A stretch of DNA of 64,000 nt. It comes from Minisyncoccota bacterium (GTDB lineage Bacteria; Patescibacteriota; Minisyncoccia; Phycocordibacterales; SW-6-46-9). The stretch is from positions 226,292 through 290,291 of the forward strand of contig JBBDRP010000002.1 of NCBI GenBank assembly GCA_040905385.1, given 5' to 3'. Below, piece after piece: positions 8,101 through 31,033 of the stretch (its first letter is position 1; each line of letters opens with the position of its first letter). The position numbers and the translations under genes are program-made. The notes below the pieces were generated by a model. It ran no database searches. It saw only the letters and a list, made by a program, of their open reading frames with translations, and was not told the origin of the DNA.

Positions 8101-11100
8101 CTCTAATTCACGGATTGGATTTACGAGTGGTACAAGCCCAACAGAAAGTAATGTAGACACCAGTCTTTTCCGTAACGCTGCAAATGTATTACGGACCAAC
8201 GATTCATTTATTGTTGATGGAAGTATCGGTATTGGCACGACATCACCAGCTTCCGAGCTTGATGTTTGGGGTGACTTCCGCGCTGGTACCAGCTCGACGC
8301 CGACGTTATTTTCAGATGCATCGACCGGGCGAGTTGGAATTGGAACGTCGAGTCCGGACCATAAACTCACTATTCGCGAAGATACCCCCAACTCTACTTT
8401 TGGTCTACACCTCGACGGTGCAGGTTCCGCCGAACCCACTATTTCCTTTGAAGAGAATGGTGAGGGTGAGAATTTCTTCCTCCGGTATAGTGGGCCTGAT
8501 AACAAATTTTATCTGGGGCGGGGAGTAATACCTGGTTTCTTCAGTCAAGAAGCTATAAGAATGACTATTGAGCGGAATAGCGGTAGAGTCGGAATCGGGA
8601 CGACGAATCCAGCTAGTACTCTTGACGTGGCCGGTACCACCACCGCGCAGGCTTTCTCGGTCGGTGGTGATATCATTAATGACTTTACTGGCACTGGCCT
8701 GAGTGTGGCCGCTAATGTGCTGAACGTTACGCTGAGTCCGTTTAGTACTGATGACCTCTCTGAAGGATCAAATCTGTACTTCACCGATCAGCGAGCGCGC
8801 GATGTCTTTTCTACCGATGCGACGGGACTTACCTACAGCGCGGCTTCGGGAGTACTGAGTCTCACCACCGGTTACAACATTCCACTGACAGCCAGCACCA
8901 CTGACTGGCAGAGCTTTTACGAGACACCGAGTACCCGCATTACCGCCGGTACTGGTCTGAGCTGGAGTGCCAACACGTTGAATACGAATGATATCGAGAC
9001 GCTGACCACCTCCTTCACCGCCGGATCCATCATCTTTAGCGATGGCACCAACCTCGCCCAGGACAATGCCAACTTCTTCTGGGATGATACGAATAATCGA
9101 CTCGGAATTGGGACTACTACACCATCCGCAATTCTGGAAATAGTGGGGGGTGGATCAACGCCGTACCTGCGTATCGGCTCCGGCGGTGGCGGTGCCTACG
9201 CCTTTGAGGTAGATGAGAATGACAAGGTGAGCGTCGGTACCGGCAATGACGATATCTACTTTAATACCTCGGGTGATACGCAGGTGGGTGTAGGAACCTC
9301 TTCGCCAATCTCTGACTTTACCGTTGTGGGTGATTCATACTTCCAGGGCGATGTCGAGGTTACTGGTACGACCAGCGTCGCTAGGTTCAGCGTCGCCACC
9401 GATACCATCACGGACATTACTGGTGACGGTTTGTCGGTGGTTTCGCAGGGCGGTGGAGGACTTGGGCTGACGGTGGATGATATAGAGACACTTTCAACCG
9501 GGCTTAGTGCCGGCTCTATCGTCTTTAGTGATGGCTTATTTCTAACAGAGGATAGCGACAACTTCTTCTGGGATGATGCTAGTAATCGACTCGGTATTGG
9601 GACTAGCAGTCCAAGCGAAACGCTTCAGGTTGCAGGAACCGCTTGGCTTCGCGGCTCAGGGACAACTAACGGATTACTTGTAAACTCAAGCGGAAACGTC
9701 GGCATCGGCACATTATCACCTACCACTACTTTGGAGGTCGCCGGCACCACGACCGCCCAGGCCTTCTCTGTCGGTGGCGATACCATCAATGATTTCACCG
9801 GCCAGGGGCTTTCGGTAGCTAACAATATTCTAAATCTTGATGATGTCGAGACCTTTAGTACCTCACTCTTGGCGGGCTCTGTCGTCTTCTCTGACGGATC
9901 AACATTGACCGAGGACAACGCCAACTTCTTCTGGGACGATGCGAACAATCGGCTGGGAATTGGTACCACCTCGCCAGCTTCCAAGCTGGATGTGTGGGGT
10001 GACTTCCGAGCTGGTACCAGTACGACACCGACGCTGTTTGCTGATACAGCGGCCAATCGAGTAGGGATTGGAACGGTGAGTCCGAGCCATAAACTCACTA
10101 TTCGCGAGGATGCCTCGAACGCTACTTTCGGTATGCACCTCGAAGGCGCAGGTTCTGCCGAACCTACTATTTCTTTTGAAGAGCAGGATGAGGGTGAGAA
10201 TTTTTTCCTCCGGTATAGTGGGGCTGATAATAACTTTTATCTGGGGCGGGGAGTCATACCTGGTTTTGCTAGTCAAGAAGCTATAAGAATGACTATTGAG
10301 CGGGACAGCGACAGAGTCGGTATAGGGACGACGAATCCAGCTAGTACTCTTGACGTGGCCGGAGATATCACCTCTAGCGGCGTTCTGGACATAAATGGTA
10401 CGGGGACCTCGACCTTTGAAGGTGGTATCGATATCGCTGGTTCGATTCTGCCGCGGTCCGACGCTGCCTACGACCTTGGATCTGCCAGCCTACAATGGCG
10501 CGATGTCTACATCAGTTCTGGATCCCTGTACATCGGTGGTCAGAAGGTGCTGGAAGAGGACGCGGATGGAGACATTAATATAACCGCTGACCCAGACCAG
10601 AATCTTAAGCTAACTGCGACCGGTACTGGTAGCGTACAGCTTGGTGCTACTGGCAGCGGAAGCACAAATGTGATAAGCGGAAACTTTGGTATCGGTATCG
10701 GCACCACATCACCTGCCACCACACTTGAGGTTGGTGGCACCGCAACCGTGAATGCGCTGGCGGTTGGTGGGGATACCATCAGTGACTTCACCGGTACAGG
10801 ACTGTCCGTAGCCAGCAATGTGCTGAACGTCTCTTTGGCGTCATTTAGCACAACAGACCTCGCTGAAGGCACAAATCTCTACTTCACCAATGAAAGAGCC
10901 GAGGATGCGGCCGGCGGCATGTTCTCCGGCAATACCGAGACGCTTATTACTGCCACGTATGAGGATGGAGACGGTACGGTTGATCTGGTAGTGGATAACA
11001 ACCTTGCCAACTACTCGAATGCCACCTCACTCTTCCTTGACGGTGTAACCGCTACTGGACTAGAGAAGTCAGGAACTGATGTGGCGCTTACCACCGGCTA

Positions 11101-13117: not shown

Positions 13118-13126
13118 GACAACATC

Positions 13127-13153
13127 GTCTGTAACAATCGGATTGTTACAGAC
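13127..13153. repeat. Perfect 13-bp-stem palindrome GTCTGTAACAATC-G-GATTGTTACAGAC. It is a REP-like hairpin between giant genes 1 and 2, sharing the outer GTCTGTAA/TTACAGAC stem with the hairpins at 19769-20683.
   Basis: Read directly from the sequence. 30 bp after the stop codon of gene 1, 24 bp before the start of gene 2. Confidence 0.8.
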
Positions 13154-13176
13154 ACCTAGTATTAGGGCTTAAATTT

Positions 13177-16100
13177 ATGAGTACGAATTTTATACAATCG
13201 GTGAAAGGCTTTATTAGCGAGAATACGCGTCTGGCGGCGGTATTGTTGGTGGTCTTTTTGGCGCTGGTAACCTTGCTCGTGTTGGGGGTCAGCAGTATTC
13301 AGGCGACCTGGTACAGCGACACGAGTGGCAGCGGAACCTGGGACTATCGTCAGCGGATCATTATCGATAGCGACCAGGTTGACTCGAATCTGCAAGACTT
13401 TCCTGTTTACGTTGATCTTGTTGATCTCGGCAGCCAATTTTTTAGTAACGTCGCGGCCGACGGTGGTGATATTCGCGTGACCAATGCGGTTGGTGAGGAG
13501 CTGCCGCGAGAGGTTGTTTCCGTCGACACCGCCTCCTCGACGGGAGAGCTGCACTTCAAGGCCGATAATCTCTCCAGCACGGCGGACACGACCTTCTATA
13601 TTTATTATGGTAATGCTGATACAGGTAATTACGCCACCAGCAGCACGTACGGTGCCCAGAATGTTTGGACGAATAATGAGGCAGCAGTATGGCACCTTAA
13701 TGAAGATCCCAGCGGTACGGCACCGCAGATACTTGATAGCACCGTAAATAATATTCATGGAACCACTGGTGGCTCGATGACGAGTGCTGATTCTGTTCTT
13801 GGAAGACTTGGCAGGGCGCTTGATTTCGACGGTACTGATGATGATGTAGAAATTCCGGATAACATTTTAATAAACATAGCTGACTCATATGACCAGAAAA
13901 CTCAAACAGTATGGTTCAAGGCTGATGAGGTAACTAGTCGGCAGGTCATCTGGGAGGAAGGTGGTTTTGCAAACGGTATAAATATATATGTAGATAGTGG
14001 TACATTGTACGGCCGAGCCTGGAGTGATAGCGAAAGCTGGTCAAAGGAGCTACAGGTAACAACCAGTGTGGCGGCAGATACGTGGTATCAGGTTTATCTG
14101 GTTCTTGATGCACCGAATGATTCACTTGAAATGTTTGTTAATGGTAGTTCAGTGGGGACGGATAATAAGACAGACGGTAATTTTCATAGTGGTCACGGTA
14201 ACGATATTGGTATTGGTAAAGTACAGGGAGATACGAGAACCCACGTAGGAGATGAAGTAGGTTTAGAATTTAACGGTGTTATTGATGAAGTTAGGCATAT
14301 CAATGAAGATCTGCGTTCTGCCGACTGGATCGCCGCCGAATACACCAACCAAAACGCACCAAATACCTTCTACACCGCTGGCAGCCAGGAAACGCAAAGC
14401 TCATCCAACGTGCCGTTTGGTGACAACCCGGGTGGTGACTTTGCCGACGGGGACTGGGACTTCCGCGAGAAGATTACCATCCACGCTGATCAGGTTGATG
14501 CGAACCTTTCCGACTTTCCGGTGTATGTCGACCTGGCTGATATGAGTGTCAGCTTTTTCGCCAATACATCCGTTAACTGTGGTGATATACGTATGACCAA
14601 TGCTTCCGGTACCGAGCTGGCGCGCGAGGTGGTGGCGTGTGATACGTCAGCCGAGACCGGTGAGCTGCACTTCAAGGCTGACTCACTTTCCAGTACTACG
14701 GACACCGTTTTTTATATTTATTATGATAATCCAGATGCTCATGACTACGTAGTAGATGCCACGTATGGGGCGCAGAATGTCTGGACGAATAACCACGTTG
14801 GTGTGTGGCATCTGAATGAAAGCTCAGGAAACACTCTTGATTCAACATCAAATAATAATGACGCAACAACTAACGGCCCTATACAGGGAGTAGAGGGACA
14901 AGTTGGAGATGCTTACTCTTTTGATGGGGCGGATGACTACGTAGAAATCGATAATTTAATCGACGAAATCCCAAATACGTTTTCTGTCTGGGTAAAAGTA
15001 GCGACTGATGTTGGTGATGGAAGAATAGGAGTCATTGCAGGTAATTATCCTGGTGATGGTTCCGCTATAAATATTGAAGGATATTTCAATGGTGAGGTAA
15101 GGATGTATTGGAATGGCGGACAGGAAAATATAAGATACGAAACGGATATAAGAACTGGCGAATGGGAGCATTTGGTATTTGTGAGAGATGTAGCAGCTGA
15201 TGAGATCAGATTATACCGTAATGGTATTAATATACCGAAGACAAGTGATGCGGGAGATGACGTAACACTAGCAGACAACAATAATAAGTTCAGAATTGGT
15301 TCCGATCATCCGAGCGATAGAGAGCCTTTCGAAGGTGATATAGATAATCTTCATATCTATAACACTGATCTCTCTGAAGAAGAAATCTCCGCTATATACA
15401 ACAACCAGAACTCACCATCCACCTTCTACACCATCTCTGGCGGTGTTTCTGCAGCGCCGGTGCTGCTGACTCCAGAAGACACGTCCACTGAGGTGGTGCG
15501 CAACCCGACTCTGGACTGGGAGCCGGTACAAAACGCTGGTGAGTATCAGGTGCAGGTGTCGCCGACCTCGACCTTCTCATCCATCGTGGTGGATGCAGAT
15601 GTGAGCACCAGCGAGATAACCCTGGGCACGCCGTACCCATCACTGAATGCCAGCACGACCTATCACTGGCGCGTGCGGACGGTGGATGGGCAGGACTTCG
15701 GTACGTGGTCAACTGATTTCGAATTTACGACAGCGGCTGGTCTGGCCGGCAGCGGTACCGAGGCCGATCCGTACCTTGTCAGCACCCCACAGGATCTGGA
15801 TGATGTTCGCAATGATTTGACTGCTTATTACAGGCAGGAAAATGATATTGATCTTACTTTCGATACGCAGGATCCAGCGGGATTATTTTACAATTCAGGT
15901 CAAGGCTGGATTACGATTGATGATTTCGAGGGTGATTATGATCTCAATGGGTATTCTGTCCTGGGAATGTTTCAAGATAGGTCAGGTTTTTATAATCGAG
16001 GACTGTTTAGATTAATCAATGCAGGAACCTTACATGACGGCCACATTGATGGAGATATTACAGGAATTGATTCTAATACAGAGGGTTCAGGTGTTGCAGT

Positions 16101-19100
16101 AGCAACAATTGGTTCAACAGGAGGTGTTCATCGGGTTAAAACAACAGGAAGTGTAGTAGCACAGAGAACAGATTTCTTCGTAACAAATGCTGCTGGTATT
16201 ACAAGTAATAACAATGGAAGCATATCAGATTCTTATAATGAGGCAGTTATTAAACAGGGTCTTGATGAGGGAGAACCTACTAGATATGGTGGAATAGCTG
16301 GACAAAATACCTCAAATATTAATAGGGTTCTGAATACTGGAAATGTTATTGTAACAACAGCAACAAGTGTCGGAGCAGTTCGGGGTTTGGACTCTGCTGG
16401 AGATATATCTAATTCTTTTTATGATCAAGATGTCGTTGATGTCGATGACCCAGAAGCAACCGGATTAACCACTGCTAATGCACAGTCTTTATCAACGTAT
16501 GAAAATGCTGGTTGGGACATTGTCCCGATCGAGCATCACGACGGGCGGAAGTCGACGGCGACCTGGTACATCGACGACGGCAACGACTACCCGCGCCTGT
16601 GGTTCGAGTACGAGGGAGAGGGTTGGTACGACGACGGCTGGAGCCACCGCGAGAAGGTCACGATCAACGCCAGCGAGGTGGATGCGACGCTGGAAGACTT
16701 TCCGGTCTATGTTGACCTGGCTGATTTCGGCGCCACCTTTTTTGCCAATGTTGATGGCGACGGCGGCGACATCCGCGTCACCAAGGCGGACGGTACTACC
16801 GAGCTCCCGCGTGAAGTGGTATCAGTAGATACCGGCGGATCCTCCGGCGAGCTGCACTTCAAGGCCGACCGTCTCTCCAGCACCACCGACACGACCTTCT
16901 ACGTCTATTATGGCAATCCAGATGCGATAGATTATGTGACAGATTATGCGTATGGTGCTGAGAATGTGTGGACAAATGGAACGCAACTGGTATACCACCT
17001 GCAGGATGATCCATCTGGTACCGGTCCGCAGATAAATGACTCAACCAGCGGTGGGTATGATGGTACTGCAAGCTCCATGCAAAGCAGTGACAGTGTTACC
17101 GGAAAGGTTGGAAAAGCTCTAGCTTTTGATGGCACGAAGTATATCGATACGGGTACTGAGTATGTTGGAGATACCGGTTTATTCGCTGATGGTAATGAGA
17201 ATTTCACTGTCAGTATCTGGTCAAAAATTAATTCGGGTGATGAAGGTACCCTGATTGCTCGCGCTGGTGGCTCTTCAGGAAGTAGGACTTTTCAGCTTGT
17301 TTCGTGGCCATCAGGAAATGAAACGCCAGGATATTACCTACGTGGAGAGTTAACTGCAACTAATTTAGGCTTTGATGACGGAACCTGGCACCAGACGACA
17401 CTCGTTTGGAATGGTTCCCAAATGGATTATTATCTGGATGGTGAGTACATGAGTAGCCCGGCAGTTGGTACTGCCGCTGAAGAAATCGGTGAAGCCATCA
17501 TTCTCGGAGCCAGAACTGGTGGTTCTGGTTTTTTGCTCGAAGGTCTTCTTGACGAGCCACGTATCTGGGATCGTGCATTATCTCAGCATGAAGTATCTGC
17601 CGAATACACTAACCAAAATGATCCATCCACCTTTTACACCGTTGCTGGTACCGAGGACGTCATCACCATGGACGGCACCGGTACGGCGGGTAATCCGTAC
17701 CTCATTGAGACGCCACAGGATCTAGATGATGTTCGCAAAGACCTCAATGCCTACTACCAACTGGCCAATGATATCGACCTGACCTTTGATACGCAGAACG
17801 CGGACGGAGATTTCTATAATGGCGGCAGCGGATGGGATCCAATCGCCACGACGAGCGCTAATTCTTTTACTGGTAGCCTTGATTTCGAGGGATATAAAAT
17901 TAGTGGATTAATGATAAATAAGCCATCAGAAAATAATCAATCATTATTTGGCTTCACTGATGGAGTAGAGTTTAACGATGTTTGGATTGAGGCAGATATT
18001 ACAGGACGTTTCAGAGCAACTATACTGACCTCACTTAATACTGGTGTATCAGTTGTTAATGGCATTAAAGCCGAAGGTGTTATAACAGGAGAAGGCAGTT
18101 CAACTGCTGAAATAGGTATAGTTGTAGGGTATCACGAAGGAACTTTCACCGTAAATGATGCCTCTTTTGATGTTCAGATTAATAATCCAAACAATCTTAA
18201 ACGAGTGGGTGGAGCTGTTGGTCACAACTATTTTGCTGGGGATGAGTTTACTGTTAACAGAGGCTTAACGAGAGGGCTATATAACTTCGATACAACAGTT
18301 GATGATACAGATCCTTTTATTGGTAATAGAGGCGCTACGAGTGTTGTTAATGATAGTTTTATTGATAGTGAGACAAGTGGTTTTCCTGCAGTAGATATTG
18401 ATGATAATACTACCTCTCTTACCACTGCCGAGGCGCAGGATATCGATACGTACCTGGATGCTGGCTGGGACATTATTGATATATCTCAGCATGATGGGGA
18501 GCGTGCGACGGCCATCTGGTTTATAGACGACGGTAATGATTACCCGCGCCTATGGTTCGAGCGTGACGGGGTAGAGAGTACGAACTTTGGCGACAGTGCG
18601 GACGGTGACTTTGTCGACACCGACTGGGGCTATCGCGAAAAGATTACCATTAACGCCAGCGAGGTGGATGCAACGTTGACCGATTTTCCGGTCTATATCG
18701 ACCTGGCCGATCTCGATAGTGAGTTTTTCGACAACGTGAAAAGTGATGGTGGTGATATCCGCGTGACGGCTGCTGACGGTACAACCGAGCTGGCGCGCGA
18801 GGTTGTGTCCATAGATACAGCGGCCCAGACGGGTGAGTTACACTTCAAGGCGCCATCACTTTCGGCCTCGACTAATACCGAGTTCTACATCTATTTTGGT
18901 AACTCTAGCGCGGTGGATTACCAGGCCGGGGATACGTACGGACGCAATGCGATGTGGAGCAATGGCTACAAGTCCGTCTACCACATGCAGGAAGATCCGT
19001 CCAGGACGGCACCACAGATAATCGACTCAACCGGTGGTGACAAGGCGACCAGTAGTGGGGCAATGACTATCGATGACAGTGTTTCTGGCCAGCTGGCTGG

Positions 19101-19737
19101 AAATGCCCTTGATTTTGATGGTAGTGATGATCATGTTCATATGCCGGAGCGACACACAGGTGGTGAAAGTGAGGTGACGCTATCGCTGTGGTTGAACCCA
19201 GTTTCCTGCGGATCGTCACAGGCGATTTACGACGAAGCCTGGGATGACGATCCTGATCAACCACGTTACTGGCAATTTGCCATCGATTGTGGCACTTGGT
19301 ATACCCGTGATACTAGCACTGGAAAGACCGGTAGTCGCAATAATGACCTTTCCTTACCAGCCTTGACTAATGGATCCTGGCAGCATCTGACCTTTGCTTA
19401 CAGCGCAGGTAGTGGTTATAAGCGAATCTATCTGGACGGAGCCCAGTCAGCTGAGACAACCAATAGCGTTGATCAGCTTACAAGTGATGAGGCTGGATTC
19501 GACTTCATTGCTCGACCCAATGATGGTAGCTATTTTGATGGCAATATTGATGAGGTTCGGGTAGCAACTGCACAGCGATCACAAAGCTGGATCGCCGCCG
19601 AATACACCAACCAAAACGCTCCATCCACCTTCTACACCGTTGGTGATGCGCAGACCGTGGATGAGAGTGCTGCAGAAGGAAACTCGGCCACAGAAATCCG
19701 CGGCGGCGAGTTCCGCGGCGGCGTAGAGTTCAGATAA
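13177..19737 (+). CDS. Giant (2186 aa) surface protein with N-terminal signal/TM anchor, four DUF2341-like modules each followed by a LamG/concanavalin-like (Laminin_G_3) domain, and an FN3 domain. C-terminus ends in ...IRGGEFRGGVEFR.
   Basis: Repeated W(D/Q)YR(Q/E)KITI...DFPVYVDL..GGDIRVT..G.EL.REVVS.DT...GELHFKAD...FYIYYGN modules (DUF2341-like). VWHLNE...DS..N.N.GT...LDEVRI.N LamG_3 signatures. PTLDWEPVQNAGEYQVQVSPTSTFSS...YHWRVRTVDGQ FN3. Confidence 0.85.
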   Translation: MSTNFIQSVKGFISENTRLAAVLLVVFLALVTLLVLGVSSIQATWYSDTSGSGTWDYRQRIIIDSDQVDSNLQDFPVYVDLVDLGSQFFSNVAADGGDIRVTNAVGEELPREVVSVDTASSTGELHFKADNLSSTADTTFYIYYGNADTGNYATSSTYGAQNVWTNNEAAVWHLNEDPSGTAPQILDSTVNNIHGTTGGSMTSADSVLGRLGRALDFDGTDDDVEIPDNILINIADSYDQKTQTVWFKADEVTSRQVIWEEGGFANGINIYVDSGTLYGRAWSDSESWSKELQVTTSVAADTWYQVYLVLDAPNDSLEMFVNGSSVGTDNKTDGNFHSGHGNDIGIGKVQGDTRTHVGDEVGLEFNGVIDEVRHINEDLRSADWIAAEYTNQNAPNTFYTAGSQETQSSSNVPFGDNPGGDFADGDWDFREKITIHADQVDANLSDFPVYVDLADMSVSFFANTSVNCGDIRMTNASGTELAREVVACDTSAETGELHFKADSLSSTTDTVFYIYYDNPDAHDYVVDATYGAQNVWTNNHVGVWHLNESSGNTLDSTSNNNDATTNGPIQGVEGQVGDAYSFDGADDYVEIDNLIDEIPNTFSVWVKVATDVGDGRIGVIAGNYPGDGSAINIEGYFNGEVRMYWNGGQENIRYETDIRTGEWEHLVFVRDVAADEIRLYRNGINIPKTSDAGDDVTLADNNNKFRIGSDHPSDREPFEGDIDNLHIYNTDLSEEEISAIYNNQNSPSTFYTISGGVSAAPVLLTPEDTSTEVVRNPTLDWEPVQNAGEYQVQVSPTSTFSSIVVDADVSTSEITLGTPYPSLNASTTYHWRVRTVDGQDFGTWSTDFEFTTAAGLAGSGTEADPYLVSTPQDLDDVRNDLTAYYRQENDIDLTFDTQDPAGLFYNSGQGWITIDDFEGDYDLNGYSVLGMFQDRSGFYNRGLFRLINAGTLHDGHIDGDITGIDSNTEGSGVAVATIGSTGGVHRVKTTGSVVAQRTDFFVTNAAGITSNNNGSISDSYNEAVIKQGLDEGEPTRYGGIAGQNTSNINRVLNTGNVIVTTATSVGAVRGLDSAGDISNSFYDQDVVDVDDPEATGLTTANAQSLSTYENAGWDIVPIEHHDGRKSTATWYIDDGNDYPRLWFEYEGEGWYDDGWSHREKVTINASEVDATLEDFPVYVDLADFGATFFANVDGDGGDIRVTKADGTTELPREVVSVDTGGSSGELHFKADRLSSTTDTTFYVYYGNPDAIDYVTDYAYGAENVWTNGTQLVYHLQDDPSGTGPQINDSTSGGYDGTASSMQSSDSVTGKVGKALAFDGTKYIDTGTEYVGDTGLFADGNENFTVSIWSKINSGDEGTLIARAGGSSGSRTFQLVSWPSGNETPGYYLRGELTATNLGFDDGTWHQTTLVWNGSQMDYYLDGEYMSSPAVGTAAEEIGEAIILGARTGGSGFLLEGLLDEPRIWDRALSQHEVSAEYTNQNDPSTFYTVAGTEDVITMDGTGTAGNPYLIETPQDLDDVRKDLNAYYQLANDIDLTFDTQNADGDFYNGGSGWDPIATTSANSFTGSLDFEGYKISGLMINKPSENNQSLFGFTDGVEFNDVWIEADITGRFRATILTSLNTGVSVVNGIKAEGVITGEGSSTAEIGIVVGYHEGTFTVNDASFDVQINNPNNLKRVGGAVGHNYFAGDEFTVNRGLTRGLYNFDTTVDDTDPFIGNRGATSVVNDSFIDSETSGFPAVDIDDNTTSLTTAEAQDIDTYLDAGWDIIDISQHDGERATAIWFIDDGNDYPRLWFERDGVESTNFGDSADGDFVDTDWGYREKITINASEVDATLTDFPVYIDLADLDSEFFDNVKSDGGDIRVTAADGTTELAREVVSIDTAAQTGELHFKAPSLSASTNTEFYIYFGNSSAVDYQAGDTYGRNAMWSNGYKSVYHMQEDPSRTAPQIIDSTGGDKATSSGAMTIDDSVSGQLAGNALDFDGSDDHVHMPERHTGGESEVTLSLWLNPVSCGSSQAIYDEAWDDDPDQPRYWQFAIDCGTWYTRDTSTGKTGSRNNDLSLPALTNGSWQHLTFAYSAGSGYKRIYLDGAQSAETTNSVDQLTSDEAGFDFIARPNDGSYFDGNIDEVRVATAQRSQSWIAAEYTNQNAPSTFYTVGDAQTVDESAAEGNSATEIRGGEFRGGVEFR

Positions 19738-19768
19738 AACCCTCACCCAACCACCACCTCTACGTCTC

Positions 19769-19791
19769 GTAAGGATAACATCCTTGCAGAC
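19769..19791. repeat. REP-like hairpin copy 1 (GTAAGGATAACATCCTTGCAGAC) upstream of the HUH transposase
   Basis: Core palindrome AAGGAT-AAC-ATCCTT. The same 23-mer recurs at 20658-20680 and, with a perfect 12-bp stem, at 20531-20560. Confidence 0.8.
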
Positions 19792-19822
19792 ACTATAAGA
19801 TAAGCCTTAAATTCAACATTCT

Positions 19823-20503
19823 ATGCTTTTACACATTATAAAACGAGGAGGACGCGGCCTGCCGATTGTTGCGGATGACGATGATCGCTGGCGATATCTG
19901 AAATGTCTGTATTATCTAAATGATAAAAATCATCCGATAGGTTGGGAGCGTGATGTTGAAGCGCTTGGTTCTGGACTGCACTTTCAACGCCCGGAATCGT
20001 GGGGTGGTGAGCGCGATCCGTACGTCGATATCCTGTCGTACTGTCTGATGGATAATCATTACCATCTATTCGTTTCCGAGCGCGATGAGGGCATGATGGC
20101 GGCTTTTACGAGGTCGCTAAATAAAAGCATGTCGCAGGCCTATAATGAAAAGCAAGACACAAGCGGAAGTATCTTTCAAGGCCCGCCCAAGAAAAAGTTT
20201 GTTGAGGATGACGCCTACCTGAAATTCCTGTACGTCTATGTCAACGTCAAGAATCCCTTCGAGCGGTATCAGGGCGGCATTCGGAAGGCGATCGAGAATT
20301 TTGATGACGCCTGGGAGTTTGCGCTCGAATACGATTTCTCTAGCTTACCAGATTGTGCGGGTGACCGGGCGTCACCCATCGTGTCGCTGGATATATTTCG
20401 GGATGCATTTTCAAGCTCCGCCGAGTTCAAAGAGTTCGCCCGCGAGCAGATGCATCGGTACGGGCAGTTTCTGGAAGATGTCGATGCGGATGACTTAGAG
20501 TAG
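19823..20503 (+). CDS. tnpA: IS200/IS605-family / REP-associated (RAYT-like) HUH tyrosine transposase (Y1_Tnp)
   Basis: HuH motif MDNHYHLFV (nt ~20055-20080) and catalytic-Tyr region LYVYVNVKNPFE (compare E. coli RayT YIYINPVKHG). At 226 aa it is slightly longer than typical TnpA. Flanked by directly oriented REP-like hairpins. Confidence 0.7.
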   Translation: MLLHIIKRGGRGLPIVADDDDRWRYLKCLYYLNDKNHPIGWERDVEALGSGLHFQRPESWGGERDPYVDILSYCLMDNHYHLFVSERDEGMMAAFTRSLNKSMSQAYNEKQDTSGSIFQGPPKKKFVEDDAYLKFLYVYVNVKNPFERYQGGIRKAIENFDDAWEFALEYDFSSLPDCAGDRASPIVSLDIFRDAFSSSAEFKEFAREQMHRYGQFLEDVDADDLE

Positions 20504-20530
20504 AGAAAAGGACAGAGAGGGAGTGTCTCG

Positions 20531-20560
20531 GTGTCTGTAAGGATAACATCCTTACAGACT
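20531..20560. repeat. REP-like hairpin copy 2 with a perfect 12-bp stem, GTCTGTAAGGAT-AAC-ATCCTTACAGAC
   Basis: Read directly. 28 bp downstream of the transposase stop codon. Confidence 0.85.
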
Positions 20561-20655
20561 GAGGTTAGTAGAAATTCACAGGAATAGATGTCGAAAGTCG
20601 AGAATGTGGGTTAAAATGAAGGCTAAGTACGCGGTGGTTGCCCGGGGTCTAGGGT

Positions 20656-20683
20656 CTTGTAAGGATAACATCCTTGCAGACGA
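20656..20683. repeat. REP-like hairpin copy 3 (TTGTAAGGATAACATCCTTGCAGACGAG), same orientation as copies 1 and 2
   Basis: Near-identical to copy 1 including 4 flanking bases. 45 bp upstream of giant gene 3. Confidence 0.8.
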
Positions 20684-20727
20684 GGAAAAGGATGATGAGG
20701 GTGGGGAGGTGACGGGAAATTACGCTA

Positions 20728-23700
20728 GTGATGATTTTAGAATTTTATAAAAAAGTTAAGGAGTTTATCGGGCGGCATCCGCGGATGGTGGCGGTGGTGG
20801 GGGTGACGGTCGCGGTGCTCGTGATACTGGGAAGTGTTGGCACGCAGGCGGCGTGGTACTCATCAACCGGCGACGGCCCGACCTGGCAGTACCGCCAGAA
20901 GATTACCATCGATGCCGACCAGGTAGATGCCGAGCTGACCGACTTTCCCGTCTACGTTGATTTATCAGATTTTGGTAGTGATTTTTTTAGTAATGTCGCG
21001 GCAGATGGTGGGGATATTCGCATCACTACCGCCGATGGCACCACCGAGCTGGCGCGTGAGGTCGTCTCGGTAGACACGGCTTCATCAACCGGGGAGCTAC
21101 ACTTCAAGGCTGATAGCCTTAGCGCCTCAAGCGACAGCGAGTTTTTTATATACTACGGCAGTAGCGGCGCAAGTGATTATGCTGTTACGGATACGTACGG
21201 CCGCAATGCGGTGTGGAGTGATTATCGTTTTGTATCACATGACGCTGGTTACACTGACTCTAGTGGCGCTCTTGCTCAAGGAACTTTGTTTAATGGTATA
21301 ACGCCAAATGATTCAGCGGGAATAATTGGAAAAGCAACGCTTTTTGACAAACCTTCACAGCAGTATGTTCAACTTGGTGACACAATCATACCTCCAAGCA
21401 GTGATTTTACGTTTGATGTTTGGGCTGAGCAGTTTGATTTTACAGGAACTACTGTATCAGATGAATCATTAATACTTACTCAAAATGATTCTGGAAGCAC
21501 AAATGCTACTTTTGTGCACGGTTCTAATGCAAGACAAAACCATATTACTGGTCTGTGGGATATTAATAATAGCAGAACTCTAGAAGGTCCTGATATAAGA
21601 GGAAATGGCTGGGTAAAATTACAGATAAGAAGAGATGGTAATGAATTTAATTTATTCCATAACAATGTCCTTCAGGATGCGACCACCACAGCCATCACAA
21701 TTCCTGATGCAGCAAACGCTTATTTGGGTGCGTATGAAAATAATGGACCAGAAAGATTTTTCACAGGTTTAATTTCAGAAGTTAGATCTGCATATACTGC
21801 TCGGTCTGATGATTGGATTGCTACTGAGTACACCAATCAAAATAATACAACTGATTTCTATACCATCGGCGCTCAGGACACCCAGCCGGATTCGAACGTC
21901 GCTTTTGGGGCGAATTCGTACGGCGACTTTGCGGATACTCGCTGGAGCCACCGTGAGAAGATCACGATTGACGCCGCCCAGGTCGATGCGGATCTAGCCG
22001 ACTTTCCGGTCTATGTAGACCTGGCCGACCTATCGACAACATTTTTCCAAAATACCAACGTAACCTGTGGCGACATCCGTGTCACGGCCGGCGACGGCCT
22101 GACCGAGCTGGCTCGCGAGGTGGTGGCGTGTGATACGGCCTCATCCACTGGTGAGCTTCACTTCAAGGCCGACAGCTTATCGGCTTCTTCAGACACCGAG
22201 TTCTACATCTACTACGGCAACAACTCAGCCAATAACTACATCCATGATGAGCAGTTTGGGCGAGATAATGTGTGGTCGGATGGGTATGCTGGTGTATGGC
22301 ATCTAAGCGAAGGTTCAGGTGAGGCCCGTGACTCAACAGCTAACAGCAGTAACGGTACAAATAATGGTGCCACTCAGGGCGTAGTCGGGCAGGTAGGTGG
22401 CGGGTATGATTTCGATGGTACGGATGATTATGTAAAGATTACAGAAAATTTCGTCTCTTCTCCAAGTGAGCTGACTATTTCTGCCTGGTTTAAGAAGGAA
22501 AGTGGCGGTGATGTGTATGAGACTGTTTTACATAAGGGTTCAGCCGATACTGTCGGCAGTAGTGATTACTGGCTAGGAGTAAGTGGTGACGATAACTTAA
22601 CCGCCACTATTGGTGCCAATACTGGCGTTGGATGGGATGCTGGTGAAACTACTACTTCAGTAAATCTCGGACAATGGTATCACATGGCTGCTACCTGGGA
22701 CGGGTCTGTTGTTGAGGTTTATCTAGATGGTCAATTTAATAAGCAGTACAGTCTGAGTTCTTACGGTGATCTGAACACGGACACCAGATTCGGTTCATCT
22801 GCAGACGGTACAAATTATCAGTTTAGAGGTACTGCCAGTGAGATTAGGATTTATAACAAAAGTATTTCCGGTGACGAGATCTCCGCAACTTACCGCAACC
22901 AGAACTCACCAACCACTTTCTACACCGTCGGGGTGAATGAAGCTTCGGCCGGGCTGTTTGGTGATAACCCGTCCGGTGACTTTGCCGACGCCGACTGGGG
23001 GTATCGCGAGAAGATCACGATTGACGCCGATCAGGTCGGTGCAACTCTGACTGACTTTCCGGTCTACGTCGACCTTTCCAACTTGTCCGCAACCTTTTTT
23101 GATAATGTCACCGCCAGTGGTGGCGACATCCGTGTGACCGCCGGCGACGGCACTACCCAGCTGGCGCGGGAAGTTGTCTCGGTCAATACAGCCTCCTCGA
23201 CCGGTGAGCTGCATTTTAAGGCTGACTCAATATCGAGCACGACCGACACCAGCTTCTACATCTACTACGGTAATCCGAATGCTGATGATTATGCGGTAGG
23301 TGATACCTACGGCGCCGAGAATGTGTGGTCGAATGAGACACTAGCAGCATTCCACCTTGAGGAAAATGCTGTGAATAGTTCCGATGATAATTTCAATGGA
23401 ACAATAAACGGAAGTCCTGCCTGGGTGACTGGTGTTATTTACAGTGCTTTGGACTTCTTGGGTACTAATGGTAATAATGTCGAAATATCGAGTGCATTGC
23501 AATCAGACATTACAAATAATTCTTACACGGTTAAAGCATGGATAAATCCAAGATTAACTGGTTCTAGTAATCAAGCAATTATAGATACAGGTAGTGAAGG
23601 AGATGGTCAGATGCGCTTCTTTATGAATGACACAGATGGGTCGTTCAAGATACAAAACACAGCCAGTTTTACTGGCACAGGAGTAAGGTCTTCAGCTGGG

Positions 23701-26700
23701 ATCTTAACCGCGGATATATGGAATCAGGTTGTAGCGGTTGTAAATGGTACTAGCGCAATTTTGTATCATAACGGTCAGGAGATAACTTCAGGAACAATCG
23801 ATGCATATACAGGTAATGGCAATAATATTGCTTTTGGTGATAAACCACTAAGTTCAGGGTCTAGCATGAATGCTCTTAATGGGTCTCTGGATGAAGTTTA
23901 TATTTACAATAGTTTATTGTCTACTGACTGGATTGCCGCCGAGTACACTAACCAGTCTACCACTACTGACTTCTACACCGTCGGTAGCCTGGAAGAGCCG
24001 AGCACCGTCTTTGGCGACGATACCGATGGTGACTTTGCTGACACCGACTGGACGTATCGCGAGAAGATCACCATCAACGCCGACCAGGTGGAGGAGACGC
24101 TGACCGACTTCCCGGTCTATGTTGATCTGTCTGATTTCGGATCACAGTTTTTCAACAATGTCCGCAGTGATGGTGGTGATATTCGCATCACCGCCAGCGA
24201 CGGCACGACCGAGCTGGCGAGGGAAGTCGTCTCTGTGGACACTGCCTCATCGACCGGGGAAATCCATTTCAAGGCCGACGAGATCGACGCCGAGGCCGAT
24301 ACCGACTTTTACATTTACTATGGCAATACCGCCGCGGTCGACTACGTCGTTACGGATACGTACGGCCGTAACGCGGTGTGGAGTAACGGCTATGCTGGAG
24401 TTTGGCACACAGGCGAAGACTCTGCTACACAAACGTTTGATTCTACTGGTAACAATAATACGGGAAACTTTCAGGATAACTTACCAACCACGCAGTCTGG
24501 AAAGATTGGAGATACGCAAGATTTTGATGGCACTAGTGATTATATTGATGCGGGTACTGACTCTAGCCTAGACATCACAACTGAAATCACGGTCGGTGTC
24601 TGGGTGAATCCTGATAATACTGGTGGTGACTATACAGGAATAGTAAATAAAAGCAGAGCAGATACGGCTGGTTTCTGGATGGGGTATTCAGCGAACGGTG
24701 ATATAGTTAGATGGGAGACTAATGATGCAGGAGGAAGTTGGCATGAAGTTGATATGCCTTTAATAGATGCCGAAGTAGGAGAATGGAATCACTTCGTAGG
24801 TGTTTATGATGGTAGTGAGCTTATAGGTTATAAAAATGGTTCTCAATCAGGAACTCCTGATAGTTTTACTGGAGAATTTGAAACTACAACTAATTCCCTA
24901 AAGTTTGGAGATTTTGAGGTTGCGGATAGATGGTTTGATGGCATGCTTGATGAGATTCGTATCTCCAGTGCTGCGCGCTCTGCCGACTGGATCGCCACCG
25001 AATACAACAACCAAAATGCTCCTAGTAGCTTCTACACCATCTCTGGCAGCCCTTCCGAAGCGCCGGTGCTGCTGACTCCGGAAGATACGGCCACCGAGGT
25101 GAGCCGGGCGCCGACGCTGGACTGGCAACCGGTCCAATCAGCTACCGAGTACCAGGTGCAGGTGTCGCCAACCTCGACCTTCTCATCTATCACGGTGGAT
25201 GCGAACGCAACCGACAGCGAGATAGCTCTGGGCACGCCGTATCCGTCATTGGATGCCAGCACAACCTATCACTGGCGCGTACGCACGGTGGATGGGCAGA
25301 GCTTCGGCGCCTGGTCCACCGACTTTTCCTTTACGACAGCTGCTGGTCTGGCCGGCAGCGGTACCGAGGCCGATCCGTACCTCATCAGTACTCCACAAGA
25401 CCTGGATGACATTCGCAATGACCTGGATGCCTACTACCGACTTACGCAGGATATTGATCTGACCTTTGATACACGGGATCCAAATGGAGATTTTTATAAT
25501 GCTGGTGATGGTTGGCAGGAAATAGATAACTTTGATGGTGAATTCGATATGGGTGGATATAGTATTATCGGAGCCCGAATTTTTAATGGATTTTTTGATA
25601 ACATTGGATCAAATGGGCTTATACATTCAGGAAAATTTGCCGATTGCGAAGTTCATGGAGGATATGATCAAGGAGTTATTAACGAAACAGGAGGGGCAGG
25701 ATTAATTAAAGAAGTTGTAGTAGATAATTGTTCTGTGGCGTCGGGCAATACTACAAGCCGTAGAATTGGTGGATTTAGCGGTAGAGGAATCTCTTCTCAG
25801 GATGTTATTTCACGTAATCTTGTGCTCGGTGGAGAAGGTGATAAGGGTGCAAACACTGGACGAGTTTTTGATACCAAGGTGTACACACGAAACCTCATTC
25901 ACAATGTGAGTTGGGAGGGTGTAAGTGGTCAAACTGAAAATCCTCTTTTTGGGTGGATTCAATCTGGTGGAAATCCGACGGTAAATGATGTGTTTTTTGA
26001 TGATGATACGCTTGATTATGCCGGAACTCGAACTGACCAAGGTACCGGGCTAACTACCACCGAGGCGCAGGATATTACTACGTATGAAAATGCTGGGTGG
26101 GACATCGTTCCGATTGCTCAGCACGACGGGCAGCGGTCAACAGCAATTTGGTACATCGATGATGGCAATGATTATCCACGTCTGTGGTTCGAGTACGAGG
26201 GTGAGGGCTGGAAAGATGGCTGGAGCCACCGTGAGAAGGTCACGATCAAGTCATCGGCGGTGGATGCGACGCTGGAAGACTTTCCGGTCTATGTCGACCT
26301 AGCTGATTTCGGCGCCACGTTCTTTAATAACGTCCGTACTGATGGTGGCGATATTCGTGTCACCAAGGCGGACGGTACTACCGAGCTGGCCCGGGAGGTT
26401 GTCTCGGTAGATACCGCCTCCTCGACCGGTGAGTTACACTTCAAGGCCGACCGCCTCGCCAGCACCACCGACACAACCTTCTACGTTTATTATGGTAATC
26501 CAGATGCGTCCGAGTACGCGACTGATTATGCGTATGGTCGCAATGTTGTCTGGAGCGATTATGAAAACGTCTACCACCTCGACGAGCAAGGAGACGGTAC
26601 CACCGGAGAGCATATCGACTCAGCCGGTAACCACGACCTGACGGCTGGATACTTTTCTGCTGGTATTCCGAATCGAGTTGATGGAAACCTCGGGTACGCG

Positions 26701-29700
26701 CAGCAGTTTAACGGAACTGATACATCAATTGGTGGTGTATTTAATCTGAGTGCTAAGGATGAAATGGTCGTGTCGGTATGGGCGCAACCAACGGCCAGCG
26801 GGCAGTCCAGCCGGTCGGGAATATTTGGATACAGTGAATATAACGTTAGTTCAGCCTATCGATTGGGTGGATTTAGATTTACAAGCAGTGATTTAGGTGG
26901 GCTTGATATCTATCTAGATGATGGAAGTGCCGAGTGGTTTAACTCCACACTGACACTGAATCTCAACCAATGGAATTACATGGTGGGTAGATTTGAATCA
27001 GGGGTTACAAAAGATATTCTTATCAATGACCAGTGGGATGAACGTACTGCACCGACAGGCAGTTTGGCAGCGGGGACCTCAAGCATAGCACTTGGTGAAG
27101 TGCAGGAAGATCCTGTGAACCGCCGATTTCAGGGGCTCATTTCCGAGGCTCGCTACAGCACCGTAAAGAGGAGCCAGGAATTTTATGCCGCTGAGTATAC
27201 GAACCAATCGACCACCACCGATTTCTATACGGTCGATACGACACCAATCCAGATTGACAGCATCGAGGATTTGGATGATGTACGCAACGACCTATCAGCC
27301 AGTTATGAGTTGACGCGCAACCTGGATTTCGACGACTGCGCCTCTTATGACACCTGTGCCAATATGGACACCTACACAACCGGCAGTGGGTGGGACCCAA
27401 TTGGCACGAGTGGCGACCCTTTTACAGGTCAATTTGATTTCAAAGGACACTCAATTACCGGATTAATGATAAATAGATCTAGCACCGACTATCAAGGACT
27501 TTTCGGGGCCTTGGGACTTGATGGTTATATTCATAGCGGTTCAATTATTAATGCAGATGTTATCGGTGAGAAACGTACTGCAGTACTTGTTGGTTTCATG
27601 GATGGAAATGCACTTGTCGAACATATTTCTATTAGGAATAGTACTGTTGGAGGGTCGTACAGTGGTAACAAGGGACTGTTAGTTGGATGGTTAAATAGCA
27701 CTACTTCTCTGATAAGAGATTCTTATGCTCAAGGGCAAGCAATTGTAGGTAATTATAGTGCTGCAGCTGGAGAAATACATCCTGTTGATGCTCAGTTTCC
27801 TTCTGAAAATCTTTACTTTGTCGGAACTCTTGATTATGGTGCCAGTAGCCCTGTTGGAGGTATTGATGCGGCAGATAATGCTTTAAATAGTTTTTATGAT
27901 CAGGATGTTGCAGGAGAAATTTTTGGAGCAGATCCAGGAAATGCAACAACAACGGTCATAATGCAGGACATTGATACGTATATTAATGCTGGCTGGGACA
28001 TCGTCCCGATCGAAGAGCATGACGGGCAGGAGTCGACGGCGACCTGGTTTATTGATGATGGTAATGACTATCCGAAGCTGTGGTTTGAACGCGAGGGGGC
28101 CCAAAGCACAGCGTTTGGCGACGACCCCGACGGCGACTTTGCCGACACCGACTGGAGCCACCGCGAGAAGATCACCATCAACCCCGACAAGGTGCCGACG
28201 GTTACAAGTAGCGTTAATTCGCGCGTCACGCAATCCAGTGATGATGCTGAGGAAAAGCTTTCCGATAATAGTATGCTTATCTCAAGTTCTGATCTTGAAC
28301 TTATCGCTGATGGCACGTCGCCTGGCGGCGATCAAGAGATCGGACTGCGTTTCCAGAACATTACTATTCCCCAGGGTGCCGTGATCACCAACGCCTACAT
28401 CGAGTTCCAGACCGACGAGACCAACAGCACTACCACCAACCTAACCTTCCGCGCGGAGGATAATAACGATACGACGACCTTTACTACCGGTAGTGGTGAC
28501 ATTACCAACCGATCCAAGACAGCCGCCTCGGTTGATTGGAACAACGTGCCGGCCTGGAATACGATTAGCGAAAAGCATCAGACCCCGGATCTGTCGGCGG
28601 TGGTGCAGGAGGTGGTTGATCGCGCCGGCTGGCAGAGTGGTAACGCGATGGCGATGTTTGTCACTGGTGACGGAACCCGGATTGCCGAGGCATATGATGG
28701 CGAGGCGGCCAATGCACCGCTGCTGCATATCGAGTACGAATCTCCAGCGGCAACCTTGACGGATTTTCCAGTTTATGTTGATCTGGCCGATCTGTCGGAT
28801 ACGTTTTTCGTCTACGTAGCAAATGACGGGGCGGACATCCGCGTGACGGCCGGTGACGGGCTGACCGAGCTTCCGCGGGAAGTCGTGTCTGTGGATAGCG
28901 TCGGGAAGACGGGTGAGCTGCACTTCAAGGCCGATGCAGTATACGGGTCGGTCGGGACTGAGTTCTACATCTACTACGGTAATCCGTTTGCTGTGAATTA
29001 TTCAGCCACGGATACGTATGGTGCTCAGAATGTGTGGAATAGTAATTATGTGTTGGTTAGCCATGATGGAGGTGCCACAGATTCAACAAGCAATGGAAAT
29101 AATGGAACTGCTAATGGTGATGCTACTGCAGGGATAGCTACTGGTAAAGTTGGTACTGCTGCAGAATTTGATGGAGTTAGTGATTCATTCCAGATAGCAG
29201 ACGACGCTTCGCTTGATACACCCTCCGCAATCACTATTACAGCTTGGGTAAATGCGAACTCATTCAAGTCTGACTTCAGCGAAATTGTTAGTAAGAAGTT
29301 TGATACTGGTTATGATTTCTTGGTCGACAATGATGCTGGCACAAACGATTTGGAATTCATAAGTTTTGATGCAGATATTCTTCAGTATTCCAACGATAAC
29401 GTGGTTGCCACTAGTACTTGGTCTCATGTGGCTGTTACATATGATAAATCAAATGTAAATTTTTATGCGGATGGCTCGTATGAAGGAGGCGGTGCAGAGA
29501 CGGCAGATATTGGTACGAATAATGAGGATCTGTATATCGGTAGCGATGCAGGTAATAGCTGGGAGTGGAATGGACTTATTGATGAAGTCAGGATACTCTC
29601 TAGTTCTCAATCTGCTGACTGGATTACAGTCGAGTATAATAACCAGTCGTCTCCATCCACCTTCTACTCTGTAGGTACGCAGGAGATTAGCGGCGAAGAC

Positions 29701-30423: not shown

Positions 30424-30426
30424 ATC

Positions 30427-30452
30427 AAAAAAGCGTTATGCGCTTTTTTGAT
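30427..30452 (+). terminator. Rho-independent terminator after giant gene 3
   Basis: AAAAAAGCG-TTAT-GCGCTTTTTTGA hairpin followed by a T-run, immediately after the stop codon. Confidence 0.75.
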
Positions 30453-30481
30453 TTAGAGGTAAGAGCTAAGAGACATGATAT

Positions 30482-30886
30482 ATGAGCAAAGAACCCAAAA
30501 AGGAGAACAAAATTACATCATTCACTGATCTGACAACGTGGCAAAAAGGCCATGAACTAGTAGTGGAGATTTATGAGACAACCGAGGAGTTTCCTAAGCG
30601 AGAGGTGTATGCGCTTACCGACCAAATTCATCGATCGGCTGTATCAGTTACTTCCAACATTGCTGAAGGGTTTGGTCGTTTTAGCTACGCCGATAGACTA
30701 CATTTTTACCGCATGGCTCGTGGATCACTGACAGAATTACAGAATCAACTCTTGATTGCTCGTGATGTTGGGTATCTCGGCACGGACAAATTTAAAGCCT
30801 TGGCAAGTAAAACCACTACGGTAGAGAAATTACTACAAGGCTTGATTCGAGCCACGAGTGATAGGAAAGATTCACATACCTCTTAG
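30482..30886 (+). CDS. Four-helix-bundle protein (23S rRNA intervening-sequence protein family, TIGR02436-like)
   Basis: ...TDLTTWQKGHELVVEIYETTEEFPKREVYALTDQIHRSAVSVTSNIAEGFGRFSYADRLHFYRMARGSLTELQNQLLIARDVGYL... matches the family pattern (W..A..L...IY.....FP..E...L..Q..R...SI..NIAEG). Confidence 0.75.
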   Translation: MSKEPKKENKITSFTDLTTWQKGHELVVEIYETTEEFPKREVYALTDQIHRSAVSVTSNIAEGFGRFSYADRLHFYRMARGSLTELQNQLLIARDVGYLGTDKFKALASKTTTVEKLLQGLIRATSDRKDSHTS

Positions 30887-31033
30887 CTCTTGTCTCTTGG
30901 ATGTGAAATGCTCTGATATATGTGATTTTGCTACAATGCATAGGAATCGCAGGTGTGGATAGTAAAACCTGTACCTCTGTTATACTAAAGGAGTAGCTTT
31001 TTTTAACTAACTCTTTATATGATGTAAGCCTAT

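Follow-up and report, generated by a model that had tools for sequence, protein, structure and literature searches.

In a 64,000-nt stretch of DNA from a Minisyncoccota bacterium (contig JBBDRP010000002.1, positions 226,292 to 290,291), which makes up about 8% of its 784-kb source contig and is referred to here as the window, a gene for a Y1 HUH single-strand DNA nuclease/transposase-like protein was found between two giant surface-protein genes, with short palindromic hairpins on both of its sides. The flanking giant genes, numbered 2 and 3 in what follows, are a 2186-aa open reading frame (ORF; 13177-19737, with DUF2341 and Laminin_G_3 domains) and a 3231-aa ORF (20728-30423). We believe, with a probability of roughly 0.72, that the Y1 gene and its hairpins form a compact REPtron-like unit, that is, a vertically inherited, single-copy, class-2-like gene of the RAYT/TIRYT type (RAYT, repetitive extragenic palindrome (REP)-associated tyrosine transposase) with lineage-specific hairpins of its own on either side. 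Within the limits of sequence and structural evidence, the unit works like a REP/RAYT system, and it appears to behave like a long-resident, domesticated unit of that type more than like a jumping insertion sequence. Cognate palindromes within about 1 kb of the gene, one of the marks by which RAYT genes are recognized, flanked it on either side in all of the approximately 15 lineages that were read. The features of the unit are as follows.

19823-20503, + strand: Y1 HUH single-strand DNA nuclease/transposase-like gene, 226 aa, recognized by motifs and fold
19764-19791, + strand: hp1, the upstream hairpin, GTCTCGTAAGGAT-AAC-ATCCTTGCAGAC, 12-bp stem with a bulged C and a T.G pair
20533-20559, + strand: hp2, the downstream hairpin, GTCTGTAAGGAT-AAC-ATCCTTACAGAC, perfect 12-bp stem and loop AAC
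20654-20681, + strand: hp3, the second downstream hairpin, GTCTTGTAAGGAT-AAC-ATCCTTGCAGAC, like hp1 but with a bulged T
13127-13153, no strand assigned: solo related hairpin, GTCTGTAACAATC-G-GATTGTTACAGAC, 13-bp stem, dG -10.7 kcal/mol, z -6.2
20603-20629, + strand: 27-nt block AATGTGGGTTAAAATGAAGGCTAAGTA between hp2 and hp3, identical in lineage L001, where the surrounding spacer has diverged

The Y1 protein

The initial annotation, made from the letters of the stretch, had read the ORF at 19823-20503 as a Y1 HUH enzyme, and this reading was borne out. Both of the motifs that it had named were present, NHYHLFV at residues 78-84 and YVYVNVKNP at residues 137-145, with NHYH (H79, H81) encoded at 20054-20065 and Y139-x3-K143-N144 at 20237-20254, and the residues H79, H81, Y139, K143, N144 and E147 were invariant in 35 homologues. 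Y139 is situated inside a predicted helix (130-146) and is the probable catalytic residue. Since searches of the PDB sequences yielded little, with no match in single-sequence searches and no better than E about 0.05, to ISDra2 TnpA, for the family profile, a comparison of folds was needed. The AlphaFold model of the protein had a predicted local distance difference test (pLDDT) score of 94.2 and a TnpA-type fold, its closest structure being TnpA-REP (PDB 4ER8). An identical protein, annotated 'hypothetical protein WD335_01240', is encoded on a 784-kb contig of a Candidatus Paceibacterota metagenome-assembled genome (MAG), and an orthologue with 84% identity was named 'REP element-mobilizing transposase RayT' by IMG.

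The match to the Y1_Tnp profile that had been proposed as a check held for the family, 32 of whose 35 members matched (best 6e-11); this protein, scored singly, stayed just below the threshold, as described further below. REP_Tyr_transpos matched 27 of the 35 at E <= 0.01 (best 2.8e-9) and reported none of them at its equivalog cutoff, and the NCBIfam model transpos_IS200 matched a single member (E 0.0036). A profile search of 1.84 billion representatives returned 259 clusters (50% identity) at E <= 1e-30 and 7541 at E <= 1e-10. In 157 full-length representatives, NH[FY]H was found in 131, FQ in 75 and [WFY]SS in 128, while the Tyr motif was Y-x3-KN(P), as in this protein, in 67 and Y-x3-NP in 64.

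The motifs of the classes and subclasses were taken from Table 1 of Quentin 2018 (PMC6006769). Three class-2 signatures are present in the protein, namely NHYH, F118-Q119 and, in its tail, F172-S-S174 (the FSS of residues 172-174). The traits of IS200 subclass 1.1, a length of about 150 aa and Y-x3-Q, were not found; the protein has 226 aa, Y-x3-KN and a C-terminal tail. Judged by motifs and length, it is a class 2 protein with subclass 2.1 as the nearest, and not a member of IS200 subclass 1.1. When Pfam was searched at E <= 1, only Y1_Tnp and a weak FhaA_N were returned, with no HTH/DnaA_C-like C-terminal domain.

Hairpins of the window

The sequence GTAAGGATAACATCCTT(G/A)CAGAC was found in three exact matches in the window (19769-19791, 20537-20559 and 20659-20681), all on the + strand, with a mean of 0 in 100 dinucleotide shuffles, which confirmed that one copy lies upstream and two lie downstream in the same orientation. 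The upstream hairpin, hp1, is located 27 nt past the stop of giant gene 2 and 31 nt ahead of the Y1 start, hp2 is 29 nt past the Y1 stop codon, and hp3, whose 3' arm TTGCAGAC is shared with hp1, is 46 nt ahead of the start of giant gene 3. As single-stranded DNA, hp1, hp2 and hp3 folded with -6.5, -11.3 and -6.6 kcal/mol (z -4.0, -7.1 and -3.8 against shuffled controls). In both imperfect copies, hp1 and hp3, folding was stronger on the + strand than on the - strand; for hp1 the values were -6.5 vs -5.1 kcal/mol, because of its bulged C and T.G pair.

The palindrome at 13127-13153 had been described as related to these hairpins, which was upheld, as it shares with them the outer 8-bp foot GTCTGTAA...TTACAGAC and the length of 27 nt and differs in the apical 11 nt. 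Giant gene 1 ends before it, with its stop at 13117, and giant gene 2 starts after it, at 13177. Its apex (..AACAATCGGATTGTT..; AACAAT) resembles the cognate hairpin of L037, the locus of a 79%-identical orthologue, a likeness compatible with its being an older or an alternative family member. A relaxed pattern of the foot had just four sites in the 64 kb, which were this hairpin, hp1, hp2 and hp3, and the other approximately 30 intergenic regions of the window were without the hairpin. The proposal that every junction of the giant-gene array carries such a hairpin was true of the two internal junctions and failed at the outer ends, with none at 1352-2137 and an ordinary T-tailed terminator at 30421-30455.

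Hairpins in related lineages

The flanks of the gene were read in about 15 lineages (L001, L004/L023, L005, L006, L007, L017, L020/L021, L022, L025-L029, L037 and L041). On the upstream side all of them had a near-perfect palindrome of 20-37 nt that was located approximately 10-45 nt before the start and usually abutted a -10-like element, and on the downstream side all had a palindrome that overlapped the stop codon or ended within about 75 nt past it. The downstream palindrome was the upstream sequence or its reverse complement in all lineages read but L006, where a different palindrome was found. In L022 the downstream hairpin (10671-10699) overlaps the stop codon and holds the TGA in its loop. 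A second downstream copy was present in L001 and not in L037 or L041. The orientation of the two hairpins, as judged from the loop or a bulge, was direct in the window and eight lineages and inverted in L005, L007, L017, L028 and L001, the last of which is the closest relative (84%).

In an alignment of 14 hairpins, which we centred on the axis of symmetry, 94% of the cells were paired and 13 of 13 pairs had changes on both sides, which was equalled by none of 500 shuffles, and slid controls gave a pairing of 32-38%. As the alignment was fitted to the symmetry, this demonstrates conserved palindromy and not which molecule folds. The foot GTCT(T)G(Y)AA..TT(R)CAGAC was kept in the window, L001 and L037, as was the sequence just 3' of hp1. 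The apical segment was GGATAACATCC in the window, GGGTTTGAACC in L001 and CAATGTTAAAG in L037, uniform across all copies of each genome, with 7 nt that differ between the window and L001 and up to about 11 nt between the window and L037. Across the lineages the sequence of the hairpins co-varied with the Y1 protein, and the hairpins followed the gene into entirely different operons; that they belong to the Y1 gene is supported.

Copies of the hairpins were also found away from their usual places. Extra local copies, at distances of as much as about 1.5 kb, were seen in L006, L026 and L027, and the copy at 9450-9472 of L006 lies in frame in the linker of a neighbouring PsbP-like gene. In L020 (10177-10220, the same as L021 7478-7519) an inverted hairpin doublet lies in frame inside the Y1 gene, which accounts for the insertion seen in P0029. 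The same doublet was found in frame in a gene for a 1407-aa Ig-like/Peptidase_S74 surface protein (L033 6828-6872, the same as L030 1690-1734), where it encodes the peptide IYSSPTAVNDGSRTAV, with the IYSSPTAV..GSRTAV that is also encoded in the Y1 gene. In a scan of metagenomes, the hairpin of the L020 lineage had four contexts beyond the Y1 locus, namely this surface-protein gene and three intergenic sites.

Residency of the gene

Synteny with the window is kept in L001 (84%) and L037 (79%), and in L041, where the Y1 identity is down to 40%, the order giant gene-Y1-GT4-GH57-GH15-MFS(-) is as in the window. Giant gene 3 and the gene for a 23S-rRNA intervening-sequence protein (IVP) that follows it (about 10.4 kb; window 20560-31033) are absent there (L041 6290-6407). 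In L004 (Y1 62%) the order was Y1-MFS(-)-RNase J(-), and with 52% identity to the window copy for MFS and 64% for RNase J, the Y1 gene diverges like its housekeeping neighbours. The ratio of nonsynonymous to synonymous substitution (dN/dS) was 0.08-0.13, with dS > 1 for the pairs window-L001 and window-L037, and the Y1 gene is under purifying selection.

One Y1 copy was detected for this MAG. The empty-site alleles that were to be looked for in related strains did not emerge; no occupied/empty polymorphism was seen, and every relative found had the orthologous site occupied. Viral and phage contigs yielded no relatives and the plasmids one remote partial match with 31% identity, and an origin from a phage or plasmid was therefore rejected. 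In 2017, Bertels and colleagues (PMC5581495) used housekeeping-like traits to separate RAYTs from IS200, and the traits in question, namely a single copy, vertical inheritance and housekeeping-like evolution, are those of the Y1 gene described here.

Distant members of the family were located between unrelated housekeeping genes, namely GrpE/DnaK, LigA/GatA, MurJ/LepA and a pair of AspRS-type/TyrRS-type synthetases. Of the 10 places shown for P0026, from 22 contigs read, all but one had the context MurJ-Y1-LepA. In L029 a hairpin-Y1-hairpin cassette (5859-6766) stands between grpE and dnaK. A PsbP-like, membrane-anchored protein of approximately 215 aa is encoded directly upstream of Y1 in L004 (268-939), L005 (4300-4956) and L006 (9289-9933); these three proteins are 36-51% identical and end in a C-terminal TWxF, and in L028 a PsbP_2-like gene comes after Y1. 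The PsbP-like gene was considered as a second gene of the unit and rejected, as it has no counterpart beside Y1 in the window.

Points against a REP/RAYT unit

Several observations weigh against the interpretation that we prefer. Scored alone, the Y1 protein reached 20.6 bits with Pfam Y1_Tnp (PF01797; gathering threshold 23, E 5e-4) and 14.9 bits with NCBIfam REP_Tyr_transpos, the equivalog cutoff of which is 80, and its Tyr motif is Y-x3-K-N(P) and not the class-2 Y-x3-N-P. The foot of the hairpins is GTCT(N)GTAA here and TCTGG, TTGTGC, ATCTAC and others in other lineages, with no conserved GT[AG]G. The initial annotation had also called for further genomic copies of the hairpin, and these did not appear: the window, with its approximately 8% of the contig, had no copy beyond the four sites, and an exact scan of the 23-mer in two public collections (genome and metagenome contigs), among which the source genome apparently is not, gave 0 matches. 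Of the features by which a RAYT system is strictly defined, the unit is without the GT[AG]G foot, Y-x3-NP and a score at the equivalog cutoff, and no REP family dispersed in high copy number was seen. A further adverse point is that the metagenome contigs with the dispersed copies of the P0029 lineage are only likely to come from one genome; their GC content spans 0.43-0.53. Finally, the covariation of the palindromes would fit a hairpin of single-stranded DNA, a hairpin of RNA or a symmetric double-stranded binding site alike, and cannot tell among the three.

Alternative explanations

The alternative that survives best, although we consider it improbable, is that the cassette (left hairpin-tnpA-right hairpin, approximately 0.8 kb) is an autonomous IS200-like insertion sequence that moves via single-stranded DNA and is very inactive here. 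The cassette is indeed of IS200 size, with window hairpins at both ends in the same orientation, and its distant members occupy unrelated housekeeping intergenic sites. Furthermore, a Kaiserbacteria genome, the only genome with two copies, has two paralogues (81% identical proteins) whose homology spans precisely the interval between the 5' foot of the hairpin upstream and the 3' foot of the one downstream. In another case L004 (from about position 966) and L023 (from about 340) share 93% DNA identity rightwards, and their homology breaks off right where the upstream hairpin has its 5' foot; this break could stem from a rearrangement at the hairpin or, as L023 is a scaffold of 1.4 kb, from a join made at a repeat during assembly. 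Nonetheless, the Kaiserbacteria paralogues have diverged by 19%, so that their duplication was not recent, and the protein does not fall in subclass 1.1, being without Y-x3-Q, having 226 aa with a C-terminal tail and belonging to a family in which transpos_IS200 matches 1 of 35. An insertion sequence would also be hard to reconcile with a single detected copy in the genome, with a locus that stays the same down to 40% identity at dS > 1 and a dN/dS of about 0.1, with the inverted orientation in 5 of the approximately 15 lineages, the closest relative included, and with plasmids and phages in which no copies were found. The cassette has thus moved over long timescales, and not recently in the clade of the window. 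The initial annotation had left the choice between an IS200/IS608-type transposon and a REP-RAYT unit; the latter fits, and the former is not supported, in view of the class-2-like protein, the conserved site, the variable orientation and the lack of any occupied/empty polymorphism.

Slightly less probable again is the explanation that the hairpins serve the host mainly as signals for the expression of the giant-gene operon, for instance as stabilizers of mRNA 3' ends, attenuators or an operator palindrome, and that their link with Y1 is secondary. All four hairpins of the window are on the coding strand, the one at 13127, hp1 and hp2 lie 9-29 nt past a stop codon, and the T.G pairs of the imperfect copies, also in L037, favour the transcribed strand. 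It was also described that upstream mRNA is stabilized by REPs (PMC3733652), and hp1 abuts a -10-like TATAAG of the Y1 gene, with the same geometry in homologues. Set against these points are the absence of the hairpin from the other intergenic regions and of any Rfam match at E <= 1 over 12900-21000, as well as the hairpins' accompanying Y1 into other operons and co-varying with the protein. The hairpins have no T-tails, while classical T-tailed terminators are used elsewhere in the genome (30421-30455 and 37153-37187), and the idea that the hairpins punctuate transcription was not sustained. A consensus scan placed no terminator on the + strand at any hairpin and showed no excess of promoters, so that the hairpins were rejected as intrinsic terminators or sigma-70 promoters.

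There is also a slim chance that the Patescibacteria clade represents a distinct, undescribed domesticated Y1 subclass, which would use the hairpins as local recombination sites by the giant genes and so drive the gain and loss of whole genes at the borders of the cassette, such as giant gene 3 and the IVP gene, and in-frame insertions of peptides into surface proteins, with the hypervariable apical segment as a rapidly co-evolving specificity code. Laminin_G_3 or giant surface genes do adjoin Y1 in the window, L001, L037, L041, L006, L017 and L020, and in L005, where the direct neighbours are not surface genes, Laminin_G_3 genes are found about 3 kb upstream. A general link of Y1 to such genes was rejected, given at least eight lineages with housekeeping or other non-surface neighbours. 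The modules of the giant genes are no more than 60-84% identical and show neither segments exchanged in recent times nor hairpins at their borders. Because of this low identity of the repeats, recent recombination among the giant genes was rejected, and the suggestion that the hairpins shuffle the giant-gene array found no support. A device of diversification that benefits the host, in which Y1 would use the hairpins to add, remove and remodel giant genes, is the least credible of the explanations, since the surface-gene adjacency just listed, the presence of giant gene 3 and the IVP gene right after the cassette in the window and their absence in L041, and the in-frame doublet of the surface-protein gene are opposed by an adjacency that is not universal, by repeats without recent exchange and by differences in gene content that are expected anyway at 40-60% protein identity.

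Comparison with known systems

Of the known systems, the TIRYT/TIRtron of subclass 2.1 (Bertels group 1) has the same NH[YF]H, FQ, SS-containing C-terminal tail and length of approximately 230 aa as the unit described here. As in the TIRYT/REPtron-like units of PMC3733652, the repeats beside the gene are sparse or of moderate abundance, a part of them being self-complementary. In contrast to TIRYT, the flanks here are short, near-perfect 27-nt hairpins and not long terminal inverted repeats with GGGGWSAS, and Pfam gave no HTH/DnaA_C-like domain; the host phylum, Patescibacteria, also differs from those of the TIRYT/REPtron-like units described. The E. coli TnpA-REP (RAYT, YafM; PDB 4ER8), which forms a REPtron with REPs and bacterial interspersed mosaic elements (BIMEs) and belongs to Quentin subclass 2.2, has only about 10% identity to the Y1 protein, which has NHYH for its DHLH, FQ for its WE and the Tyr motif Y-x3-KN(P). 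Unlike the E. coli REPs, the hairpins are without a GT[AG]G foot, and no high-copy dispersed REP family was seen. Like the subclass 2.4 RAYTs of Cyanobacteria and Bacteroidetes, the family has in-frame copies inside the tnpA-REP gene and other genes, as in L020/L033 and L006, although that subclass has the motifs NH[IFV]H, WQ and YIxNNP, with REPs that are GT[AG]G-footed and of far higher copy number. With IS200/IS608 the unit shares the Y1 HUH fold, a size of approximately 0.7-0.8 kb, subterminal hairpins at both ends and one hairpin-to-hairpin duplication in a relative, but its protein has about 75 aa more and no Y-x3-Q, there is no tnpB, and the unit is single copy and syntenic over deep divergence, with hairpins whose orientation is not fixed.

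In 2013, Di Nocera (PMC3733652) had already described REPtron-like and TIRtron-like units in species without REP families, and our literature search found no paper that describes this Patescibacteria clade. The unit would extend the combination of a REP/RAYT-type domesticated transposase and its cognate hairpins to the reduced genomes of Patescibacteria (candidate phyla radiation, CPR), in a minimal form that consists of one gene, two to five hairpins and almost no dispersed copies, and in a sizeable family. As the system is very small, it could be a clean model for the role of a RAYT in its host without a large REP population, and it could also serve as a model for the co-evolution of an enzyme and its hairpins, with a conserved foot and an apical segment that changes in concert. 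For annotation, such genes should not be called active IS200 transposases.

Proposed mechanism

For the REPtron-like unit we propose that a dimer of the protein would bind the hairpins once they fold in DNA that is single-stranded. The lagging-strand template is where IS608-type Y1 enzymes are known to act. The GC skew was positive in every 4-kb bin of the window, including over the - strand genes at 36-42 kb, and this G-rich + strand is thus probably the leading strand in sequence and so would be the lagging-strand template. Near the foot of a hairpin the DNA would be nicked by Tyr139, giving a 5'-phosphotyrosine link, while H79 and H81 would hold the metal ion, and the DNA would then be rejoined. 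In this process hairpins might occasionally be copied or replaced, mostly nearby. Such events would account for hairpins clustered close to the gene, for doublets, for insertions that stay in frame and for apical segments that change in concert. On rare occasions the whole hairpin-gene-hairpin cassette might be duplicated. As hp1 is at a -10-like element and each of the other hairpins closely follows the 3' end of a gene of the same strand, the hairpins may plausibly have secondary roles, such as autoregulation or protection of mRNA 3' ends.

Giant genes and other features

The 27-nt block between hp2 and hp3, which contains a -10-like TTAAAAT, may be the promoter of giant gene 3, in which case hp3 would lie in the 5' leader of that gene; whether the block is part of the unit is uncertain. 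The giant DUF2341/LamG proteins have a conserved double RGG motif at the C terminus, ending in EIRGGEFRGGVEFR and RLRGGSTIRGGSTAQ in two of the cases and in QLRGGSTIRGGTNLR* in L041, with coordinates of 19696-19737 and 30376-30423 in the window, 4410-4452 in L001 and approximately 5410-5457 in L041. This end may be a C-terminal sorting or anchoring signal. The end of giant gene 1 differs and is an acidic tail rich in T, E and D. Upstream of that gene, the listed start of which is a TTG at 2138, there is an AT-rich non-coding stretch of approximately 790 bp (1352-2137), which is probably a long regulatory or promoter region, unless the true start of giant gene 1 is elsewhere. After the terminator of giant gene 3, the IVP gene (PF05635) was located at 30482-30886, and a member of the same family was also found in L022.

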